Source: Patescibacteria group bacterium (GTDB lineage: Bacteria; Patescibacteriota; Minisyncoccia; Phycocordibacterales; UBA9973). From it: a DNA stretch of 64,000 bases. The stretch covers positions 49,531-113,530 of the forward strand of contig JAGWLB010000002.1 in the NCBI GenBank assembly GCA_028865035.1, read 5' to 3'. Shown here in pieces: positions 3,894-47,236 of the stretch (position 1 is the stretch's first letter; each line of letters begins with the position of its first letter). The translations under genes and the position numbers were made by a program. The notes below the pieces were generated by a model, which saw nothing but the letters and a program-made list of their open reading frames with translations, did no database searches and was not told the origin of the DNA.

Positions 3894-6134
3894 TTATTTC
3901 TTTTTTACCTTTATATTTTCGCCTAGTTTATGAGGATTATGGTTTTTGCACATTTTATTCGAGCACCGCTCAGGTATCGTCTTCGTACCTTCCATCATAA
4001 GAGATTGACAATATGGACAGATGTTACCTGTGGGCTTGGCTTTAATTGCATTCTTACAATCTGGATAGTTACTGCAAGAATAGAATATTCCAAATCTTCC
4101 ACGACGTTCCATCATTTTACCTTTATTGCAAACTGGACAAGTGACATCAGTCATTTTCTTTTTCTTTTCTTCTTCATCTTCTTTTATAAATTTACATTTT
4201 GGGTATCGTGAACAAGAAACAAAAGCTCCGAACTTTCCTTGTCTTATTACTAGTTTTCCACCATGTACCTTTTTCTTTTTTTCTCCTGCCTGCGCAGGCA
4301 GGCCACAGAGTGGACACATTTCACCAGTTTCCTTTGGTCCCTCAAGCTCCAAACCTTCTATAGTACGAGCTCCATCACAGTCGGGGTAACGTGAACATGA
4401 ATAGAATTTACCATTACGAGCAAGTTTTATAATCATAGATGATCCACATTTAGGACAAATCATATCAGCAGGTGCTTCTCCCATATTTGTTGCTTTGGCT
4501 AATTTGTCTTTTTCCTTGATATCTTTCTGGAATGGAATATAAAAATCTTTTAGAGTTTTCACATATTCACGTTTACCATTTGCGATATCATCAAGCTCAT
4601 CTTCCATTTCAGCTGTAAAAGTATCACTTATATATTCAGCGAAATTATTCTCCAGAAAACTCGATACTACATCTCCGGTGTCAGTAGGGAAAAGAGTGCG
4701 ACCTTCTTTTGTAACATAGCCACGGTCTTCTATGGTACGCATTATAGATGCATAAGTACTTGGTCTACCGATACCTCGTGCTTCAAGTTCTTTTACCAAT
4801 CCTGCCTCACTGTATCTGTTTGGTGGTTCAGTGAACTTTTCTGTGTTTTTAAGTTCGAGTAGCTTTAATAGTGCACCGACTTCTACAAGTGGAAGCTCTA
4901 CATCATCACCACGTGCTTCACTATCGCATGCAAGCCATCCAGGAGATATCATTCTTGATCCATTCGCTGTGAAATCTGGTATATCAGCCGATTGAATATT
5001 TGCGATAATTTTTGTTTTCATAAGTTTTGCGTCTATCATTTGTGATGATACTGTGCGTTCCCATATAAGACGATACAATTTTTTCTGTTCATCGTTGGAT
5101 CCTTCATTCATAGACTCAATATGTGTCGGACGAATAGCTTCGTGTGCCTCCTGTGCATTTTTAGATTTAGTTTTATATACACGAAGCTCTACTTGGTCTT
5201 GACCATATTTTTTCTCTATAACTTTTTTAATTTGTTCTTGAGCAACCTTAGCAAGGTTTGTGCTGTCTGTACGCATATAAGTTATAAAACCAGCTTCGTA
5301 TAATTTTTGAGCAACTTGCATTGTTCTTGATGGTGAAAAACCTAAACGAGTACTTGCTGTTTGTTGTAGTGTTGATGTAGTGAATGGTGCGCGTGGGCTA
5401 CGTTTCTGCTCAGACGTTTTTATATCAGTGACAAACCATTTTTCTTTTTCTCCTTTTGTTAATATATTTTCTACAATTTTTTGGTCACGAGGTTCATCAA
5501 CACAAGTTAGTGTTAATTTTTCTTTTTTGGGTGTTTCAAATAATCCTTCAAGTGTCCAATATTGCTCTGGTACAAAAGCACGAATTTCGCGTTCACGTTC
5601 CATAATAATACGTAAAGCAGGGGATTGTACTCTTCCTGCTGATAGTCCATATCTTACTTTTTTCCAAATAATACCCGAGAGATCATATCCTACAAGTCTA
5701 TCAAGTACTCTTCGGGCTTCTTGTGCTTTACGCAGGTTTGTATCTATATCTCGGGGAGATTTCAATGCTTCCTCGACAGCTTCCTTTGTTATTTCATGAA
5801 AAGCCACTCTTTTAATAGGTGCTTTGATCTTACTATTGCTATGTAAGATTTCTTCTATATGCCAGGCGATTGCTTCTCCTTCACGGTCCGGGTCAGTTGC
5901 GAGCATTATCTCATTTGCTTTTAATGCTAAATCTGTCAATTCATTTACAACTTTTTCTTTACCTTTTGAAATTTCATAGTGTGGAACAAATCCACCAGGT
6001 ATATCAATTGCAGTTTTGTTAGATTTTGGTAAATCACGTATATGTCCGACAGATGCACGGACAGTAAAAGCTCCATCGAGATACTTCTCAATAGTTTTTG
6101 CTTTTGAAGGTGATTCAACAATTAATAATTTCAT
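3894..6134 (-). CDS. topA: DNA topoisomerase I with three C-terminal C4 zinc ribbons
   Basis: TOPRIM start MKLLIVESPSKAKTIEKYL; catalytic-core motifs; three CPxC...CxxxxC ribbons. The middle ribbon carries an extra LPAQAGEKKKKVHGG segment encoded by the palindrome at 4285..4302. Confidence 0.9.
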   Translation of the reverse strand: MKLLIVESPSKAKTIEKYLDGAFTVRASVGHIRDLPKSNKTAIDIPGGFVPHYEISKGKEKVVNELTDLALKANEIMLATDPDREGEAIAWHIEEILHSNSKIKAPIKRVAFHEITKEAVEEALKSPRDIDTNLRKAQEARRVLDRLVGYDLSGIIWKKVRYGLSAGRVQSPALRIIMEREREIRAFVPEQYWTLEGLFETPKKEKLTLTCVDEPRDQKIVENILTKGEKEKWFVTDIKTSEQKRSPRAPFTTSTLQQTASTRLGFSPSRTMQVAQKLYEAGFITYMRTDSTNLAKVAQEQIKKVIEKKYGQDQVELRVYKTKSKNAQEAHEAIRPTHIESMNEGSNDEQKKLYRLIWERTVSSQMIDAKLMKTKIIANIQSADIPDFTANGSRMISPGWLACDSEARGDDVELPLVEVGALLKLLELKNTEKFTEPPNRYSEAGLVKELEARGIGRPSTYASIMRTIEDRGYVTKEGRTLFPTDTGDVVSSFLENNFAEYISDTFTAEMEDELDDIANGKREYVKTLKDFYIPFQKDIKEKDKLAKATNMGEAPADMICPKCGSSMIIKLARNGKFYSCSRYPDCDGARTIEGLELEGPKETGEMCPLCGLPAQAGEKKKKVHGGKLVIRQGKFGAFVSCSRYPKCKFIKEDEEEKKKKMTDVTCPVCNKGKMMERRGRFGIFYSCSNYPDCKNAIKAKPTGNICPYCQSLMMEGTKTIPERCSNKMCKNHNPHKLGENIKVKKK
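4285..4302. repeat. 18-bp GC-rich perfect palindrome CCTGCCTGCGCAGGCAGG (21-mer shared with 13138..13158), in frame inside topA
   Basis: Exact 21-nt identity (CCTGCCTGCGCAGGCAGGCCA) with the copy inside intergenic repeat A1. GC-rich in an AT-rich genome. Encodes an insertion relative to the two sibling zinc ribbons. Confidence 0.7.
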
Positions 6135-12398: not shown

Positions 12399-12484
12399 AT
12401 GGGAATATTATATCATAGATAATTGCGTTATTTGTCTATTTGGTGTATTTTAAAGAGGTATTAATAGGGGATAATAAAAACATT

Positions 12485-12555
12485 TGGGGATCGTCTAATG
12501 GTAGGACAGCGGCCTTTGAAGCCGTTAATTGGGGTTCGAATCCCTGTCCCCAAGC
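12485..12555 (+). tRNA. tRNA-Gln (anticodon TTG)
   Basis: Cloverleaf: acceptor TTGGGGA/TCCCCAA, anticodon stem GCGGC/GCCGT with loop CTTTGAA, T-loop GGGGTTCGAATCCC. Confidence 0.8.
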
Positions 12556-12716
12556 AAAGTGAGCCAAGCGAGATTTGCTTGGGGAAGAAAGTGCATTGCA
12601 CTTTCGCCAGGGATGAGAAGACCTTGAGTGTATCGCACGTAGCAAAGCAAGTACGATACGAAAGGCGTACTGAATCTGTAGGATTCGAAACTCCCTGTCC
12701 CAAAGCCAATAATTTG
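12556..12716 (+). other. structured ~160-nt spacer ending in a degenerate duplicate of the tRNA-Gln T-arm/acceptor 3' end (TAGGATTCGAAACTCCCTGTCCCAAAG); att-like scar or tRNA pseudogene
   Basis: Compare tRNA ...GGGGTTCGAATCCCTGTCCCCAAG with the copy ...GGATTCGAAACTCCCTGTCCCAAAG. Several hairpins lie in between (CCCCAAGCAAA/TTTGCTTGGGG; GTATCG/CGATAC). Confidence 0.5.
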
Positions 12717-12731
12717 TTTATAGTATTAAAT

Positions 12732-13121
12732 ATGAAAAAAGAAATAAAATTCACAGCTCTATTTGTAAAAGACATAAAAGATTTATTAAAAAGATTCCCT
12801 CCTAAGCATAAGAAAATTTTTGGACATCATTCAACGATTGAATTTCAACCAACTAGTCTAGATGGCATAGAAATAGGAAAAGAATGCAGTATAAAAATAA
12901 TAGGACGAGCTTGGGATGAATTTGGAGATGACCTTCTTGTTGAAAATTTAAAATCTAAAAATAAATACCCCCACATAACCGTGTCCCGAGCAGATAATGC
13001 TCCACCACTGTACTCAAAAATACTATTTGAAAAAACTGATATAGAATACTTTGATAATGAAGAAGTTAGGGTTATTGAAGGATATTCAGATGGGAATAAG
13101 TATATTACACAGAACCTATAG
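12732..13121 (+). CDS. small 2H phosphoesterase superfamily protein (LigT/CPDase-like, two H-x-T/S-x motifs)
   Basis: The GHHSTIEF and PHITVSR motifs are spaced ~60 aa apart. The ORF track begins earlier (12498), inside the tRNA; the first plausible ATG after the duplicated tRNA 3' end is at 12732. Confidence 0.5.
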   Translation: MKKEIKFTALFVKDIKDLLKRFPPKHKKIFGHHSTIEFQPTSLDGIEIGKECSIKIIGRAWDEFGDDLLVENLKSKNKYPHITVSRADNAPPLYSKILFEKTDIEYFDNEEVRVIEGYSDGNKYITQNL

Positions 13122-13122
13122 C

Positions 13123-13216
13123 TGTTCCAACTTCATCCCTGCCTGCGCAGGCAGGCCAGACTGTAAGCCAATAATTTGCTATAATATTAACTTATGGAAA
13201 AGAAAATTATTGTTAT
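13123..13216 (+). repeat. intergenic direct repeat family A, copy 1 (carries an extended -10 TGCTATAAT and the first 8 codons MEKKIIVI of a Nudix-like gene start)
   Basis: Near-identity to 14531..14604 (GTTTCAACTTC...CAGAC.GTAAGCCAATAATTTGCTATAATA.TAACTTATGGAAAAGAAAATTATTGTTA). In this copy the palindrome CTGCCTGCGCAGGCAGG is inserted. Confidence 0.8.
13138..13155. repeat. second copy of the GC-rich palindrome CCTGCCTGCGCAGGCAGG, inserted in repeat A1
   Basis: Identical 21-mer to 4285..4305. It is absent from the otherwise homologous repeat copies A2 and A3. Confidence 0.7.
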
Positions 13217-13237
13217 AACTTCTGGTATAATATTAAA

Positions 13238-13876
13238 ATGGAAGAACAACTCACTAATTATATTAAGGAAAAGTACAATCCATTAGCCATTGTATTACAT
13301 GGCTCACGTGCAAATGGGTACGCAAAGGAACATTCTGATTGGGACTTTTTAATTTTTACATATAAAGATGTTAACCCCGCAAGAGATATTAAATTTGGTG
13401 CAAATTTTGAAATAAAGCAAGTAATACTTCCTTTGTCTGATAATAAAATTAAGGAAGGTCTTGGTTTTTTATTTAGGACCGAAAATATAAAAATATTATA
13501 TGATAAAGATAGTATTGTTCCTGCTTTGCTTACTAAAAATGAAATAGTAATTGAAAAAGGAGACACGTTCAATGAGGTAGATAAACGTGCTCGATGTGCA
13601 TTTTTAAAATCAAGTTTAGATAGTATTGAAGATTATAAAAATAATGAGTTAATTGTTTTTTCCAAAAAGGCAATATTTTATAATAAGGTTGTGCCTACGT
13701 GGTTTAGATTTCTTCATAACGAATTCAAGCCCTCAGATTATTTAGCTCTACCTCGAATTAAAAGTGATGATCCAGAATTCTATAAATTACTTGAGGAGTT
13801 TATTGATGCAGATGCTGAGCAATCAATTCTTATTGGAAACAAAATGATCAATCATATTTTCTCAGATTTAGATTAA
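13238..13876 (+). CDS. pol-beta superfamily nucleotidyltransferase with a C-terminal helical domain (KNT/ANT-like or MNT-HEPN-like)
   Basis: Motif LHGSRANGYAKEHSDWDFLIF (GS...D.D). A leaderless-type promoter (TGGTATAAT) ends 6 nt before the ATG. Confidence 0.6.
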   Translation: MEEQLTNYIKEKYNPLAIVLHGSRANGYAKEHSDWDFLIFTYKDVNPARDIKFGANFEIKQVILPLSDNKIKEGLGFLFRTENIKILYDKDSIVPALLTKNEIVIEKGDTFNEVDKRARCAFLKSSLDSIEDYKNNELIVFSKKAIFYNKVVPTWFRFLHNEFKPSDYLALPRIKSDDPEFYKLLEEFIDADAEQSILIGNKMINHIFSDLD

Positions 13877-13881
13877 GAATT

Positions 13882-13910
13882 GTTTCAACTTCGCCTCAGA
13901 CGGTAAGCAA
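13882..13910 (+). repeat. repeat family A, partial copy 2 (GTTTCAACTTCGCCTCAGACGGTAAGCAA)
   Basis: Matches the 5' half of A1 and A3. Confidence 0.6.
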
Positions 13911-13966
13911 ATAAAAACCACCGGAAATAAATTTGGTGGTTTAATAGAAGTTTCATTCAAATAATT

Positions 13967-14452
13967 TTAATCTTGGAATTTTTTGATTGCCTCGATTCTT
14001 ACAGAATCATCAAAAAATTCTTTTGGATTAATTATCCCGAGGTTGTCATCCACTAATTTAATATCAAGAGGTAAGACACCTGCAGTCGGAATAATTCCTC
14101 CGTTACCATCATCTGCACCAAACTTTGAAGAAATAAAATAAATAATTATTGTTTCTTCACCGCCGCATTGTTCAATCATGTAATTTACAATATTTATATC
14201 CTTGTTTGGCCATTTTTTTACCGGACCAATCATAATTATTTCAAAATTTTCAGGCTGATAAAAAAAATTACCAGGATCAGCATTTATAGGAAAATGAAAT
14301 TGTTTACCGGTCAAATCAAAATTTTTTGATTCACCATACCATTGTAACCAAACTTCATTACCATGTTTTTTTTCACGAAATAAGGTTGGTTTTTTTACAA
14401 TTTCTTTGCATGTTTGATGAACGGGCTCGCTCACTGGCTTAACTGTTTCCAT
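13967..14452 (-). CDS. hypothetical protein (161 aa)
   Basis: Intact ORF with no family I can recognise from sequence. Confidence 0.4.
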   Translation of the reverse strand: METVKPVSEPVHQTCKEIVKKPTLFREKKHGNEVWLQWYGESKNFDLTGKQFHFPINADPGNFFYQPENFEIIMIGPVKKWPNKDINIVNYMIEQCGGEETIIIYFISSKFGADDGNGGIIPTAGVLPLDIKLVDDNLGIINPKEFFDDSVRIEAIKKFQD

Positions 14453-14530
14453 AATTTAACATTTTAATGGTTTATTTTATTGTTGGTTTTTCTTTACATT
14501 AACATTTACTACTTATTTGTCAACAATATC

Positions 14531-14604
14531 GTTTCAACTTCACCCCAGACGGTAAGCCAATAATTTGCTATAATACTAACTTATGGAAAAGAAAATTATT
14601 GTTA
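14531..14604 (+). repeat. repeat family A, copy 3 (contains the promoter and the start of the Nudix gene)
   Basis: Near-identical to A1. -10 TATAAT at 14569-14574, ATG at 14583, giving a leaderless-type arrangement. Confidence 0.8.
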
Positions 14605-15017
14605 GAGCTAGAGCTATTATTTTAAATAATAATAAATTACTAGTAGTAAAGCATTCACATGATTCGAGCTTCGCTGCTTTACCAGGGGGTCACCTTGAAT
14701 GGGGAGAAGATATCAAGGAATGTTTATCTAGAGAAATTGTAGAAGAACTTGGAATAAACCCTGAGATTGGAAGACTACTATATGTTAATAATTTTACAGA
14801 AAAAGATACTGAGCAATCAGTAGAATTTTTCTTTGAAGTTACAAATGGTTATGCGTATAAAGATTTTGAAAATCATACAAGAACACATGCATATGAACTT
14901 GCTGATATACTTTGGATAGAGCCTAACGATCTTGTGAACATTCTACCAAAAGAATTTGAAGAAGATTTTAAATTAGGGAAAATTATTTCTGATCAAGTAA
15001 GATATATACATTCTTAA
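14583..15017 (+). CDS. NUDIX hydrolase
   Basis: Nudix box GGHLEWGEDIKECLSREIVEELG. Confidence 0.8.
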   Translation: MEKKIIVRARAIILNNNKLLVVKHSHDSSFAALPGGHLEWGEDIKECLSREIVEELGINPEIGRLLYVNNFTEKDTEQSVEFFFEVTNGYAYKDFENHTRTHAYELADILWIEPNDLVNILPKEFEEDFKLGKIISDQVRYIHS

Positions 15018-15088
15018 ACAATAAAGATTTAAATGAAATTACTCCAGACTATAAATGAAAAAGATTTTTTCTGTTATAATATATATGT

Positions 15089-15511
15089 ATGAAATTTATT
15101 AGAATATTTCTCTTAATATTAATTATTATTGGTACAGGGCTTTTGTTGACTCAAAAAATTTGGGTTCCTAAGTTTGTAAATATTATTTTAAAAAATAATA
15201 CACAACAAGAGCAACCAATAAACGATGGAACTACTAAGATTGCTTTCCCTGAAGGCGGAGAAACTTTTATTCCTGGACAGACATATACTCTCAAGTGGTC
15301 ATACGGCCCTAATCCGCTCGATATTTTTCTTATAGATACATCTCTTAGAAAATATGGAGCGTCTGTGAGTCTTTCTGATCGAGTATACCGTATCACAAAT
15401 ACTGGTTCATATGAATATACCTTTCCTAAAAATCTTAAAGATGGCATATATCAATTTAGAATTGGAAATGTTATTAGTAATAATTTTAAAGTTACTTCAA
15501 CATTAAAATAA
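15089..15511 (+). CDS. hypothetical membrane-anchored/secreted protein (140 aa)
   Basis: N-terminal TM helix; terminator hairpin at 15510-15528. Confidence 0.45.
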   Translation: MKFIRIFLLILIIIGTGLLLTQKIWVPKFVNIILKNNTQQEQPINDGTTKIAFPEGGETFIPGQTYTLKWSYGPNPLDIFLIDTSLRKYGASVSLSDRVYRITNTGSYEYTFPKNLKDGIYQFRIGNVISNNFKVTSTLK

Positions 15512-43335: not shown

Positions 43336-43408
43336 TCCGGAGTAGCTCAGCGGTAGAGCAAGCGACTGTTAATCGCTTGGTCGCAGGTTCGATCCCTGCC
43401 TCCGGAGC
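43336..43408 (+). tRNA. tRNA-Asn (anticodon GTT)
   Basis: TCCGGAG acceptor, anticodon loop CTGTTAA, T-loop GGTTCGATCC; terminator hairpin at 43437-43468. Confidence 0.85.
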
Positions 43409-43470
43409 ATTTAAAAATTTTATAAGAATGTAAAGAAAAAATCCTGCCTTTTAAAAGACAGGATTTAAGA

Positions 43471-43700
43471 TTGTGTGAACCCATAAGTAGACGTTTAACC
43501 GCGTCTGCTGGCACGTCAATTAGACACTTACTTTCTCTTAGCAACATTGGCATACGTTCCGTGTTAACTACTGGCTCACTTATAAAAAGTGTTATTCTTT
43601 GGGCGGTGTGTACAAGGACTGTTTTTACGCCCTATTAAAGCTCGCTTTCGCTCAGTCCCCCAAAGCACTTTATCTAAGGTACAATCTCAAGACTATATTA
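43471..43700 (-). other. mosaic of near-exact universal 16S rRNA motifs in non-rRNA order (1400-region CCTTGTACACACCGCCC; 530-loop GTGCCAGCAGACGCGGTTAAACG; GGGCGTAAA; GGACTGAG)
   Basis: Exact 17-mer match to the decoding-site consensus and 20/23 match to the 530 loop, both on the minus strand, ~90 nt apart. These differ from this genome's own 16S at those positions. Confidence 0.6.
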
Positions 43701-43709
43701 GCATATTAT

Positions 43710-43741
43710 ACTCTTCCGAACATCCTCCCAGGTTTGGAGCC
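43710..43741 (+). repeat. cassette-associated inverted repeat, copy 1 (ACTCTTCCGAACATCCTCCCAGGTTTGGAGCC)
   Basis: Half-sites CCGAAC/GTTYGG separated by 10 bp, immediately upstream of the promoter of 43809. Confidence 0.75.
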
Positions 43742-43808
43742 ATACTTGACAAATTACTTTATATATTATATTTTAGAGTTAAATTGTTAAACTAAAAATT
43801 GAATAATT

Positions 43809-44312
43809 ATGAAAAAAGTTTTTCTTGTTCTTTTAATAACATACTCAATAGTATGTACAGGTTATATTATTTATCTAAAGTCACCTCTCAATGACCATGG
43901 GCATAGACTCTACGGAGTTAAGAATCCAAAAACTATGTTAGTTTTAGATTCAATATTCCGTGATGTAGCTAACCTTCATAGGGATTTGGTCTTTAAGGTT
44001 GGACCGAGTACTCAGGCAATTTACGACAACGGCAGAGTTGGCTTAAATTATATAAGCGACTCAACAGTGGATCTTCCATTATCTGGGCCCAGCTTCGTTG
44101 TCAGTAATCCAGAAGAATCAGCACAAAAAGCCGCTAGGATTCTAACCCGAAATGGATTTAATGCCAGAATTATTGTTAATTTTGACTCAACTTTATCCAA
44201 TAAATTAGTTTTACTTCAAAGTAACTCTATTAATTGGACACTTGTTTTTAGAAGAGATATTCTAAATATGGGCAAGAAACCAAAAGACATAGGTTTCGGA
44301 TGGGCAAAATGA
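43809..44312 (+). CDS. hypothetical membrane-anchored protein (167 aa)
   Basis: N-terminal TM helix; terminator hairpin at 44341-44370. Confidence 0.45.
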   Translation: MKKVFLVLLITYSIVCTGYIIYLKSPLNDHGHRLYGVKNPKTMLVLDSIFRDVANLHRDLVFKVGPSTQAIYDNGRVGLNYISDSTVDLPLSGPSFVVSNPEESAQKAARILTRNGFNARIIVNFDSTLSNKLVLLQSNSINWTLVFRRDILNMGKKPKDIGFGWAK

Positions 44313-44389
44313 TTTTCAAAAAAAGATGATTTTTTTATTGAAGGAATCGTGTAACAACGATTCCTTTTTTATTTATCCATATCAACCAA

Positions 44390-44421
44390 ACTCTTCCGAA
44401 CATCCTCCCAGGTTCGGAGCC
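44390..44421 (+). repeat. cassette-associated inverted repeat, copy 2 (ACTCTTCCGAACATCCTCCCAGGTTCGGAGCC)
   Basis: 31/32 identical to copy 1; perfect CCGAAC-N10-GTTCGG. Confidence 0.8.
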
Positions 44422-44477
44422 TAAATTTTAATTTGATTTGTAAGAGGAAAATTGTATAATTAAAGAAAACTTTAGTA

Positions 44478-45125
44478 ATGGAATTAAATGTATCAAAACA
44501 GTATTATGAATCACTTGATTATACTGCCATTTCTTTAATAGAAACCGTTACCCGTTTTAATACTAATTGTGGAAGTATTAACAATATTATATCGACAGAA
44601 GATAACTTTCCTTTGAAAAGGAATCCGGGAGCTAATATTGAAGATTGGAATGGTTTTTTTGTTTCTCGTAATTTTAGATTTTTATTGAAGCTAAATTGTT
44701 TTGGAAAGATAATGGAAATTCCTTACCACAAAAATATTAGCACCCTAATTAGTTGTGCTAGATATGATGAAAAGTTTAATAATGTGGTAATAAATAATGA
44801 TTATTGTCTTAGAAAAGCCAATTTTCTGAAGTCAGTAACAAACCATCAGCTTTTTGGATATCTGTTTTCTAAATCAAATGAGCTATCAATAATGACACTG
44901 GACGATATCAGTTTCCTGTGGATGATTCTAAGTACACTCCTATTTCATGAAAATTTGCTAAATCATGGAGAATGGTGCCACAACGTATTTATGGGTTGGA
45001 AAAGAAATAGTCCTTTAATAGTTCAGAGAATTGGAAAATTATGGCATCTTTCAAATGATGAATTTTATCCTGAACATTCGTATCATGTAAAAGATGAAAC
45101 ATTATTTTTCCCGGTTATCAAGTGA
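44478..45125 (+). CDS. hypothetical protein (215 aa)
   Basis: Promoter TTGATT-N16-TATAAT upstream; terminator at 45131-45172. Confidence 0.45.
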   Translation: MELNVSKQYYESLDYTAISLIETVTRFNTNCGSINNIISTEDNFPLKRNPGANIEDWNGFFVSRNFRFLLKLNCFGKIMEIPYHKNISTLISCARYDEKFNNVVINNDYCLRKANFLKSVTNHQLFGYLFSKSNELSIMTLDDISFLWMILSTLLFHENLLNHGEWCHNVFMGWKRNSPLIVQRIGKLWHLSNDEFYPEHSYHVKDETLFFPVIK

Positions 45126-45277
45126 TTATAAAGACACCATTTTATTTAACGGTGTCTTTTTAATAATATCTAGAACATTTTCCAATCTTTTCTTAATTTT
45201 ATTCCAATTAGAATTCTGAACTTGTCCACTAAAGCGAGCCAGATAGATTCTCGTTAAAGTTTTGATATAATAAACTT

Positions 45278-45832
45278 ATGAGAAAAATAATTGTACAAGA
45301 AATGATTAGTGTTGATGGATTTTTTGCTGGAGAAAACGGTGAAATAGATTGGCATAATGTGGATGCCGAATTTAATAAATATGCTATTGAATTTCTTAAT
45401 ACCATAGATTCTTTGTTGTTTGGCCGCATTACTTATGAACTCATGGCAAGTTATTGGCCTACAGAAGCTGCTTTAAATGATGACCAAATCGTTGCTTCTA
45501 AAATGAATAATCTTTCGAAAATTGTTTTTTCTAAAACCAGGAATATATTAGAATGGAATAACTCAAAAGTGTTTTCTGAAATTAATGCAGAAGAAATAAA
45601 AAAATTAAAACAAACTGAAGGTAAGGATATTGCCATATTTGGCAGTGGTACTATTGTATCTGAACTTACCAAACTAAGATTAATTGATGAGTATCGGCTT
45701 ATTGTAAATCCTATAGTTCTTGGTAAGGGTAAGTCATTATTTTCATATATAGAAAAAAGATACAAGTTACAGCTCGTAAAAGTAGAAAAGTTTAAATCAG
45801 GAAATGTTTCCCTTCACTACAGTCTTTTATAG
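45278..45832 (+). CDS. dihydrofolate reductase-like (RibD C-terminal domain family)
   Basis: MRKIIVQEMISVDGFFAGENGEIDWH start and a DHFR-like fold pattern. Confidence 0.6.
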   Translation: MRKIIVQEMISVDGFFAGENGEIDWHNVDAEFNKYAIEFLNTIDSLLFGRITYELMASYWPTEAALNDDQIVASKMNNLSKIVFSKTRNILEWNNSKVFSEINAEEIKKLKQTEGKDIAIFGSGTIVSELTKLRLIDEYRLIVNPIVLGKGKSLFSYIEKRYKLQLVKVEKFKSGNVSLHYSLL

Positions 45833-45862
45833 AATCAATAAGGGTTAAGAACATTTAATAAT

Positions 45863-45893
45863 ACTCTTCCGAACATAATCCAAGGTTTGGATC
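45863..45893 (+). repeat. cassette-associated inverted repeat, copy 3 (ACTCTTCCGAACATAATCCAAGGTTTGGATC)
   Basis: Conserved half-sites and 10-bp spacer length; the spacer sequence diverges. Confidence 0.7.
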
Positions 45894-45929
45894 TTGTTAA
45901 TTTTGTAGTAGAGATGTTATATTTCTATC

Positions 45930-46403
45930 ATGGAAGAAAGAGATACAGAAGGAGCTTTTAGATGGATTGTAAATATAATTAAAAAACATAATATACCTTT
46001 TCAGATAAAAGGTGGTTTTGCTTCACGTCTATATGGAGTAAAAAGGGAACTGGCTGATATTGATATATCTATCCCAGAGAATAGATTTGATGAATTAATT
46101 CCTGAAATAAAAGAGTTTATTGTATATGGACCAGAACAATATTTAGATGATGAATGGGATATAAAACTCATAACTCTAACTTACAAAAATCAGGATATAG
46201 ATATAGCAGGAGCATATAAAAAGAAAAACTTTGATAAGATGAACCAGAAATGGGTAAATATACCGACTAACTTTGATACTAGTGTGTATATGGATGTATA
46301 TGGTTTAAATGTACCAGTGATTTCTAAGACAGACCTAATAAATTACAAGAAACTCATTCAAAGAGATGTAGATATATTTGATATTAATGCTTTAAGTAAG
46401 TAA
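45930..46403 (+). CDS. small nucleotidyltransferase-fold protein resembling lincosamide (Lnu) or aminoglycoside nucleotidyltransferases
   Basis: IKGGFASRLYGVKRELADIDISIP parallels Lnu WLDGGWGVDVLTG...HRDIDIDFD; 157 aa. Confidence 0.45.
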   Translation: MEERDTEGAFRWIVNIIKKHNIPFQIKGGFASRLYGVKRELADIDISIPENRFDELIPEIKEFIVYGPEQYLDDEWDIKLITLTYKNQDIDIAGAYKKKNFDKMNQKWVNIPTNFDTSVYMDVYGLNVPVISKTDLINYKKLIQRDVDIFDINALSK

Positions 46404-46408
46404 CTTAA

Positions 46409-46438
46409 TATTCTTCAGAACATAGTCTCAGAATTGTA
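46409..46438 (+). repeat. degenerate fourth copy of the cassette repeat
   Basis: TATTCTTCAGAACATAGTCTCAGAATTG, about 60% identical to the others. Confidence 0.35.
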
Positions 46439-46516
46439 GTTTAGTGAATTTGTAAACGTTATTAATTTTAAATAAGTACTTACATATATGTAAACTTTTA
46501 TGATATAGTCATTGTT

Positions 46517-47119
46517 ATGATAAAAGTATTAATTTTTGATGCTGACGGTGTTCTCATAAATGGTGAGATGTTCAGTAAAATACTTGCTAAAGAATACGGA
46601 ATCTCAACCGAAATAACAGAACCATTTTTTGACGGACCTTTTAGTGAGTGCTTAGTTGGTAATATTGATTTGAAAGAAGCTATTTCTCCATATTTAGAAG
46701 GTTGGGGATGGAAAACAGGTGTGGATAGTTTCCTAGATTATTGGTTTTCTGCAGAGCACTCTATTGATCAAGATTTGATTGCATATATTCAAGAATGTAG
46801 AAAGAGGGGAATCAAGTGCTATGTTGCAACCAATCAAGAAAAGCATCGAGCTGAGTATATGCTTGATAAATTAGGATTTGTAAATAACTTTGATAAGCTT
46901 TATGCTTCTGCGCATTTAGGGCATAAAAAACCAAGTTTGGATTTCTATGAAAAATTAGTAAACGATCTCGACGGCATAAATAAAGAAGAAATCCTATTTT
47001 GGGATGATTCACCTAAAAATATAACGGCCGCACGACAATTTGGAATTAATGCAGAATTATATACTACTTTTGAAGATTTTAATAAGAGAATGAAGATTTA
47101 TCCTGATTTTGATAAGTAA
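46517..47119 (+). CDS. HAD superfamily hydrolase (subfamily IA)
   Basis: IFDADGVL motif I; bidirectional terminator at 47152-47175. Confidence 0.75.
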   Translation: MIKVLIFDADGVLINGEMFSKILAKEYGISTEITEPFFDGPFSECLVGNIDLKEAISPYLEGWGWKTGVDSFLDYWFSAEHSIDQDLIAYIQECRKRGIKCYVATNQEKHRAEYMLDKLGFVNNFDKLYASAHLGHKKPSLDFYEKLVNDLDGINKEEILFWDDSPKNITAARQFGINAELYTTFEDFNKRMKIYPDFDK

Positions 47120-47236
47120 TACTAATTCGAATATCCTATCTATTCTTCTAAGCGAGCAAATAAAAAACCCTGTTATAGGGTTTTACGGCAATTTAAAATC
47201 TTAAGTAATATGTATATATTTATAATTATGACTATA

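Follow-up and report, generated by a model that had tools for sequence, protein, structure and literature searches.

The stretch analyzed here (the window) is 64,000 nucleotides (nt) long and comes from a Patescibacteria (Paceibacteria) metagenome-assembled genome (contig JAGWLB010000002.1, positions 49,531 to 113,530). Its 2H-like, 161-aa and AI-2E proteins match NCBI proteins with locus tags KGI58_014xx at 100% identity. Behind a tRNA-Gln gene it carries an islet in the order tRNA-Gln, tRNA-like element (TLE), 2H phosphoesterase, A1, nucleotidyltransferase, A2, an inverted gene for a 161-amino acid (aa) protein, A3, Nudix hydrolase and degenerate A4, where A1 to A4 are short repeated units (Table 1). 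An earlier note on this DNA had described an accessory islet at a tRNA, flanked by att-like sequences, whose gene order was reshuffled at the repeats, and our analysis agrees with this description. It also goes beyond it: the repeat belongs to an element found across the lineage, a second array lies at tRNA-Asn in the same window, and the Gln islet is a somewhat decayed example of this conserved lineage-wide feature.

A repeat search of the window confirmed A1 (13124–13237), A2 (13879–13914) and A3 (14528–14626), whose core patterns have a chance expectation of zero in 64 kb. A1 and A3 are 88% identical over 82 nt (part of A1 against 14545–14626), including TTGCTATAAT and ATGGAAAAGAAAATTATTGTT (MEKKIIV), so the earlier reading of a shared gene start in these two repeats holds. 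The tail that the repeats share, AAGCCAATAATTTG, recurs as A0 (12703) at the end of the spacer that follows tRNA-Gln, and a degenerate fifth copy, CCAGACTATAAAT, is found at ~15040, 3′ of the Nudix gene. In A1, the MEKKIIV start is not followed by an immediate stop; it runs for ~30 further codons, out of frame with the nucleotidyltransferase. That A1 repeats the promoter and the first seven codons of the Nudix gene suggests former adjacency of the 2H and Nudix genes in the window, and the duplication of unit, promoter and MEKKIIV in front of the nucleotidyltransferase suggests the scar of an insertion or unequal exchange upstream of such an ancestral 2H-Nudix arrangement.

The units of the islet are referred to below as Gln type. 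A1 is interrupted in its conserved spacer by a 17-nt GC-rich palindrome, TGCCTGCGCAGGCAGGC (13140–13156), which is absent from A2, A3 and the units of a related tRNA-Gln locus (L046). Without this insertion, A1 has three mismatches to the L046 unit GGTTCCAACTTCGTCCCAGACTGTAAGCC. We dropped a hairpin reading of the Gln-type units, as A1–A3 alone fold no better than shuffled sequences; these units contain no inverted repeat. The terminator behind A2 has its stronger T-run on the minus strand. The last units of both window arrays (13906–13919 and 47153–47168) run into the same AGCAAATAAAAA(A)CC and then into a terminator hairpin, which may be what ancestrally followed the tRNA.

Table 1. Features of the Gln islet and of the second array, in positions of the window
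Feature	Position	Strand	Evidence or remark
tRNA-Gln(UUG), array anchor	12484..12555	+	ARAGORN; Rfam tRNA 61 bits; alignment of 3′ ends
tRNA-like element (TLE), Gln type	12577..12707	+	GC 50%; fold z −2.5/−3.8; family alignment
A0, TLE 3′ end and first unit of the array	12679..12707	+	repeat search and alignment with tRNA 3′ thirds
Predicted promoter module of the 2H cassette, AATAATTTGTTTATAGT, 7 nt before ATG	12708..12731	+	consensus only
Cassette gene 1, minimal CNPase-like 2H phosphoesterase, 129 aa	12732..13121	+	
Unit A1, Gln type: GTTCCAACTTCATCCC, 17-nt palindromic insertion (13140–13156), CAGACTGTAAGCC	13124..13169	+	
Duplicated promoter module AATAATTTGCTATAAT, fossil Nudix start ATGGAAAAGAAAATTATTGTT, then the nucleotidyltransferase's own TGGTATAAT	13170..13237	+	88% repeat
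Cassette gene 2, pol-beta-fold nucleotidyltransferase, 212 aa, GS-x10-DWD, helical C-terminal half	13238..13876	+	
Unit A2, Gln type, left and core part only: GTTTCAACTTCGCCTCAGACGGTAAGCA then AATAAAAACC	13879..13914	+	
Bidirectional terminator hairpin between the convergent nucleotidyltransferase and 161-aa genes	13915..13942		fold −17.9 kcal/mol, z −2.9
Cassette gene 3 (inverted), 161-aa protein	13967..14452	−	no family match
Unit A3 (GTTTCAACTTCACCCCAGACGGTAAGCC), then promoter module AATAATTTGCTATAAT	14528..14582	+	
Cassette gene 4, MutT-like Nudix hydrolase, 144 aa, intact Nudix box GHLEWGEDIKECLSREIVEELGI	14583..15017	+	
Tentative degenerate unit A4 (CTCCAGACTATAAATG), then the next gene's TGTTATAAT promoter	15037..15077	+	weak; 15055–15079 is 76% identical to the A1 module
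Second array, after tRNA-Asn(GUU) 43336–43408	43336..47158	+	unit alignment, profile search
Second array, canonical units	43714–43741, 44394–44421, 45866–45893	+	hidden Markov model (HMM) without any window sequence, E 1e-11
Second array, variant units	45214–45240, 46411–46439, 47124–47158 (R6)	+	

The wider search started from L003, a locus with a 2H homologue, in which small co-oriented genes after tRNA-Asn are separated by CTTyCGAACATCATCCCArGTTCGGAGC. Scanning with a degenerate pattern returned 34 stretches in ~30 species-representative genomes, labeled nearly without exception as Patescibacteria, Paceibacteria or Nomurabacteria (one contig is binned as Cytophagales). The consensus, TTyCGAACATCnTCCCArGTTyGGAGC, is a 27-nt unit (Asn type) that separates co-oriented single-gene modules in ~30 Paceibacteria species and is nearly invariant over 66 distinct copies. 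With an nhmmer profile derived from these stretches, we detected two to eight units per 8-kb locus, always in one orientation within a locus and at a median spacing of 925 bp. Where the tRNA-Asn is visible, the arrays lie downstream of it and co-oriented with it in 11 of 12 loci. Exactly one open reading frame (ORF) occupies 28 of the 57 intervals, and 80% of the ORFs point the same way as the units. In all, 106 ORFs lie between units; they match 109 Pfam families, none of them more than four times and including NUDIX, GNAT, Fic, HAD, methyltransferases and glyoxalase, a mixture that a cassette pool typically holds. Often a terminator hairpin resembling the one after tRNA-Asn comes behind a unit, and some units lie between two terminators, which argues for a role at the DNA level. 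Dispersed repeats of the repetitive extragenic palindrome (REP) or miniature inverted-repeat transposable element (MITE) kind were rejected, the units being clustered, co-oriented and tRNA-linked. Viral contigs gave no match for repeat A or either unit type.

The window itself holds an Asn-type array. Five co-oriented single genes follow its tRNA-Asn (a 167-aa and a 215-aa protein, RibD_C, an ANT(2″)-like nucleotidyltransferase and a HAD hydrolase), each preceded by a unit or a unit variant.

Aligned with the 3′ thirds of tRNA-Asn and tRNA-Gln, the two unit types show a T-loop-like TTCsAAC, a conserved 5-nt insertion, TCCCAG for the T-stem strand and an acceptor-like tail. Apart from A0, the units align with the tRNA 3′ third across the 5-nt insertion, and the exact match is limited to their last 5–7 nt. 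These equal the 3′ end of the anchor tRNA: yGGAGC(C/A) at tRNA-Asn and AAGC(C/A) at tRNA-Gln, whose 3′ end, ...CCCCAAGC, is common to the unit ends. The left half of the unit is constant between the array types and the right half varies with the anchor tRNA. Synteny in relatives, which we reached through protein homologues as a search for the flanking AI-2E gene in genome and metagenome contigs returned no relatives, gave two informative loci. In L046, the AI-2E protein is 58% identical to that of the window and is likewise accompanied by tRNA-Gln(UUG), here followed by three units of the same type and four small genes, none of which is related to the islet genes; its unit GGTTCCAACTTCGTCCCAGACTGTAAGCC agrees with the Asn consensus at 19 of 27 positions. 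L045, the closest relative found (AI-2E 68% identical), has neither tRNA-Gln nor an array beside this gene. These differences mark the islet as a variable region, whereas a block conserved in all relatives would have spoken against the earlier description.

Evidence for transfer comes from two species with unrelated flanks, in which L003:3298–4052 and L036:916–1669 are 98% identical over 755 bp. This module consists of a promoter, an ORF and a unit. On the right, identity ends exactly after ...GTTCGGAGCA; on the left, it begins directly after the intact 3′ end of tRNA-Asn in L003 and directly after a unit, deeper in the array, in L036, so that the junctions fall at the shared ...CGGAGC. Four further cassette-sized matches (82–94% identity) also end at unit ends. 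We rejected a crossover inside the T-loop-like left arm, as the tRNA stays intact and the right half of the unit is not a functional tRNA 3′ end. On the other side of the anchor, its 5′ end is duplicated in L003 (2902–3213), where two TTCCGCGG copies flank an 82-aa GIY-YIG gene, and in L046 (5340–5431), 19 nt of the tRNA-Gln 5′ end recur ~85 nt upstream of the gene. These duplications point to insertions on the 5′ side too.

The spacer behind tRNA-Gln (12556–12707) has ~50% GC compared to ~32% for the genome and folds better than shuffled sequences (z −2.5 alone, −3.8 with tRNA-Gln included). It is closed by TCCCTGTCCCAAAGCCAA (12692–12709), 89% identical to the tRNA's own 3′ end (12541–12558), with the T-loop-like GGATTCGAAAC 5′ of it; the structured spacer ending in a copy of the tRNA 3′ end, as first described, was therefore found again. 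Neither ARAGORN nor Rfam called a transfer-messenger RNA or a second tRNA here, and both identities were rejected. Rfam covariance models recognized no family in the spacer, in the units or in the corresponding elements of relatives, matching only tRNA and 16S rRNA. From its 5′ side, the TLE contains an acceptor-like CTTGGGG, an 8-bp hairpin (GAAAGTGC/GCACTTTC), a T-stem-like CAGGGA, a variable insert of ~75 nt, TCCCTG, the 3′ acceptor-like strand TCCCAAAG and then CC. Its end, A0, nearly repeats the 3′ third of tRNA-Gln, with the T-loop TTCGAAA, TCCCTG, TCCCAAA, G and CC.

Relatives of the TLE stand after tRNA-Asn, or after a unit and terminator, in L007, L025, L029 (twice), L003 and L040. 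They share one order of parts: a 5′ strand that is complementary to their own 3′ acceptor-like end and matches the neighboring tRNA, a 7–8-bp hairpin, GUAGGA-UUCGAAC, a variable 60–100-nt insert, UUCCUAC, the acceptor 3′ strand and AGCC. RNAalifold found compensatory changes in 11 of 23 pairs among six sequences, in a family alignment with six Asn-type members, and overall covariation was greater than in all 500 shuffles. In the acceptor and T-stem helices it is possibly inherited rather than selected, because these helices copy the local tRNA. The hairpin, with six of seven pairs compensatory and 92% of cells paired, provides comparative evidence that is independent of such copying. No promoter is evident for the TLE, and in L025 it is flanked by terminators. 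The order in L040 (tRNA-Asn, terminator, TLE, promoter, 2H) parallels that of the window. The TLE may be a functional part of the gene-capture platform considered below, as a secondary docking site or as a guide or decoy RNA.

Each gene of the islet has its own TGnTATAAT-like −10 box, 6–8 nt before the ATG. These promoters are predicted from the TGnTATAAT consensus alone; a generic sigma-70 scan did not flag the extended −10 sites and yielded no more sites than shuffled sequences did. The proximity of the TATAAT-like box to the ATG (6–9 nt) and the lack of a Shine-Dalgarno sequence (12708–12732, 13224–13238, 14566–14583 and 15069–15089) suggest leaderless mRNAs. The module AATAATTTGTTTATAGT also precedes the 2H genes of relatives (upstream regions in L003, L040 and L042), where it is always abutted by a tRNA-3′-like remnant.

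The three enzyme assignments of the earlier note were borne out. In the 2H protein, H33-S-T35 and H81-I-T83 are invariant in 32 homologues, and the two lobes and pseudo-twofold symmetry of the 2H fold are present. No Pfam or NCBIfam model scores above threshold, and a profile search of Protein Data Bank (PDB) sequences with the 2H alignment returned only a spurious match to McyI. The protein shares both HxT motifs and the fold with the 2H superfamily (CNPase, LigT/ThpR, CPDase, Acb1, Usb1) but, at 129 aa, is much smaller than its typical members (~180–220 aa). The 170 members of its family are 65–84% identical, compared to 55–68% for the relatives of the flanking AI-2E protein. The nucleotidyltransferase matches Pfam Polbeta (2.9e-9) and NTP_transf_2 (1e-7) above both cut-offs, with the catalytic motif HGSRANGYAKEHSDWDF; for specific kinship with kanamycin nucleotidyltransferase, the matches are weak (ANT(9) E 0.1; MntA 30 bits for a cut-off of 60; weak PDB sequence matches). 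The Nudix protein matches Pfam NUDIX (1.9e-16) and an NCBIfam MutT-like model, as well as Nudix hydrolase 1 and MutT in the PDB, and homologues at 51–55% identity are cassettes in the arrays L032 and L012. For the 161-aa protein, there was no match in Pfam, NCBIfam, PADLOC or PHROG, the AlphaFold2 model is unusable (pLDDT 40), and only seven homologues were found, one of which is a cassette within the Asn-type array of L043. In L041 (6001–6725 and 9877–10881), the 2H gene is overlapped at its end by a 112-aa Nudix gene in an operon-like arrangement, and a Xer-like tyrosine recombinase gene adjoins tRNA-Thr 3.6 kb away.

We consider it fairly probable that these arrays arise by site-specific capture of single-gene cassettes at tRNA 3′ ends, with a recombinase encoded elsewhere. 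The data show the architecture, its occurrence throughout the lineage, the transfer of a cassette-sized segment bounded by units and the agreement of unit ends with the anchor tRNA; enzymatic, site-specific recombination, the crossover point and the activity of the promoters are inferred. Each cassette is made up of an extended −10 promoter just before the ATG, presumably active, a single ORF, in many cases a terminator and, at its 3′ end, the ~27–30-nt unit. Recombination between a unit and a tRNA 3′ end, or between two units, would insert, excise and reshuffle the cassettes, the tRNA end acting as attI and the unit as attC by analogy with integrons. Judging from the junctions, the crossover would fall within the shared 5–7 nt. 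The enzyme would act in trans, as XerC/D, encoded elsewhere, does for pdif modules, the small gene modules bounded by 28-bp sites on Acinetobacter plasmids. A fuller version of this proposal, which we advance only tentatively, is that Paceibacteria, which belong to the Candidate Phyla Radiation (CPR), possess a gene-capture platform built unlike integrons. Its primary site would be the tRNA 3′ end (Asn, or Gln in some lineages), its cassette site the 27-nt tRNA mimic, with the invariant left half for recognition and the right half matched to the tRNA, and a trans-encoded enzyme would move promoter-bearing cassettes between genomes, the TLE being a functional part.

Several results weigh against capture by a recombinase. 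Neither the window nor 44 of the 45 related loci yielded a tyrosine-recombinase homologue or motif, the only recombinase in any locus being the Xer-like gene of L041 next to tRNA-Thr, and no recombinase family recurs among 140 ORFs that flank the arrays. Neither an excised circle nor an empty site was seen in the genomes compared. The units of L008 lie upstream of tRNA-Asn, not downstream. The insertion in A1 and the degeneration of A4 indicate that the Gln array of the window may have lost its activity. The Gln-type units of the window escape detection by a strict Asn-type HMM (E >1), for which reason we call them a divergent type rather than members of the same profile, and a scan of metagenome contigs gave no match for the Gln-type unit; the case for homology of the two types is built on their architecture, a partial motif and the L046 unit GGTTCCAACTTCGTCCCAGACTGTAAGCC as an intermediate. 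Finally, all genomes are metagenome assemblies, in which repeats can cause misassembly, yet the arrays recur in many independent assemblies.

The same loci could be read as a fossil island, left by decayed successive insertions of integrase-carrying, tRNA-targeting elements (tycheposons or small prophage-like islands), of which cargo and att remnants survive and in which the units have no function. The interrupted A1, the degenerate A4 and the absence of an integrase nearby all fit this reading, as does A0, which simply copies the 3′ third of tRNA-Gln, and in tycheposons, tandem integration at tRNAs is known to leave partial-tRNA repeats behind (bioRxiv 10.1101/2020.12.28.424599). However, remnants should drift, whereas the Asn-type core has stayed nearly invariant in 66 copies and ~30 species. 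The unit is not a plain copy of the tRNA either, given its conserved 5-nt insertion and constant left half. Spacing by single genes (median 925 bp) also speaks against decayed islands, as does a 98%-identical single-gene cassette whose right edge coincides exactly with a unit end and whose left edge adjoins the end of a tRNA or unit. We regard this origin as unlikely. An even less probable reading takes the unit as a cis-acting operator, a UP-like site or an RNA hairpin of the 3′ untranslated region, serving a regulon of small accessory genes, and not as a recombination site. A TTGACA-like −35 follows the unit by 3–6 nt in many copies, and the arms of the Asn-type unit pair into a 7-bp stem in 56 of 66 copies if G-T wobble is accepted on the top strand, versus 13 of 66 with Watson-Crick pairs only, which fits a folded single strand. 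The stem is not conserved between the unit types, though, because the right half follows the anchor tRNA with no compensating change in the left arm. Behind the terminal units (A2 and R6) stand terminators instead of promoters, and some units sit between two terminators; moreover, the units cluster beside tRNAs and their ends coincide with the edges of transferred segments.

The third alternative is the one that the earlier note had put forward, namely that the 2H phosphoesterase, the nucleotidyltransferase and the Nudix hydrolase work together in RNA-end or nucleotide-signal processing, or in defense. All three chemistries act on nucleotides or RNA ends, and the relatives of the 2H fold include Acb1, an enzyme directed against the cyclic-oligonucleotide-based antiphage signaling system (CBASS). 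The gene overlap in L041 also joins a Nudix gene to a 2H gene, but this Nudix protein is only 33% identical to that of the window. PADLOC assigned the Nudix protein and the nucleotidyltransferase to the single-protein candidate families PDC-S07 and PDC-S09, respectively, matched neither the 2H nor the 161-aa protein, and did not find the component set of any described defense system. Against a joint function, every gene is equipped with its own promoter, neighboring genes are separated by a unit, and one of the genes in between is inverted. The neighbors of the 2H homologues differ in eight of eight contexts (among them DUF1428, glyoxalase, OmdA, DUF305 and Exo_endo_phos), and the 45 related loci contain no homologue of the nucleotidyltransferase. 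A single functional system, which we hold to be very improbable, was thus rejected on the grounds of the individual promoters, the occurrence of 2H, Nudix and 161-aa homologues as separate cassettes elsewhere and the generic PADLOC matches. On the comparative evidence, the islet genes qualify as independent cassettes, not as an operon or functional set; the earlier interpretation was half right, in that shuffling among the repeats stands and the functional set does not.

Arrays of this kind resemble integrons and their clusters of attC sites lacking an integrase (CALIN) in several ways. Cassettes are co-oriented, mostly carry a single ORF, encode very mixed accessory functions and end in a short repeat like a recombination site; the primary site is fixed at one end of the array, and the same cassette occurs in different arrays. 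In contrast to integrons, no IntI adjoins the arrays, with no tyrosine recombinase within 4–10 kb, and the primary site is a tRNA 3′ end. Integron attC sites are structure-conserved imperfect inverted repeats of 57–141 nt with R″, L″, L′ and R′ boxes, whereas the units here are conserved in sequence and measure 27–30 nt. Integron cassettes are promoterless and share a common Pc promoter, while those described here have their own predicted promoters and, in many cases, terminators. The pdif modules differ in their 11-6-11 sites of alternating orientation, borne on plasmids and not linked to tRNAs, the units here being direct repeats on a chromosome. As with tRNA-targeting islands, the arrays begin at the 3′ ends of intact genes for tRNA-Gln and tRNA-Asn. 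In the tycheposons of Prochlorococcus, tandem insertion at a tRNA leaves partial-tRNA direct repeats between insertions, newer insertions push older ones outward, and islands likewise grow beside tRNA genes in streamlined genomes (bioRxiv 10.1101/2020.12.28.424599). These are, however, multi-gene elements with integrase and replication modules, compared to single genes with neither inside; their repeats are plain ~40-nt tRNA copies, and not a modified mimic of the tRNA 3′ third with an invariant core foreign to the tRNA (bioRxiv 10.1101/2020.12.28.424599).

If capture at tRNA ends is correct, a cassette platform would explain the shared pool of small enzymes in these bacteria (Nudix hydrolases, nucleotidyltransferases, acetyltransferases, kinases, glyoxalases and Fic proteins). 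To our knowledge, the ultra-small CPR bacteria have tiny genomes, few recognizable mobile elements and no clear route of gene acquisition. Our literature search, partial in its coverage, found no description of integron-like or cassette arrays in CPR or Patescibacteria; one paper reports islands predicted by IslandViewer, with no detail on tRNAs or repeats. The model predicts circular cassettes and presence/absence polymorphism at unit ends. It would also imply a recombinase with a modular, tRNA-matched target site, of possible interest as a programmable integration tool. For annotation, adjacent genes in such arrays should not be taken for operons or defense systems.

Some boundaries of the Asn-type arrays show additional features. 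A second motif, the T-arm-like hairpin TTAGGA(n)GTTCGAACCTAA, stands directly before cassette promoters, including that of the 2H gene, at L003 5940–5975, at L042 ~5960–5985 and, in L022 and L024, just after tRNA-Asn; it appears to replace the 27-nt unit at those boundaries. In L043 (1440–1790), the tRNA-Asn(GUU) that precedes the Asn-type array is missed by ARAGORN; ~290 nt that resemble a group I intron interrupt its anticodon loop behind CCTGT. In the window, the ~300 nt between the terminator of tRNA-Asn and the first unit (43409–43713) contain minus-strand 16S-like matches in scrambled order, of 16 nt (one mismatch) to the universal "1392" site and 11 nt to the "519" site (E 0.02 and 0.09 against the 16S of the window). 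This fragment has the canonical GTACACACCGCCC and the window's own 16S has GTACTCACCGCCC; it could be a scrap of a foreign rRNA gene at an insertion hotspot, or chance.

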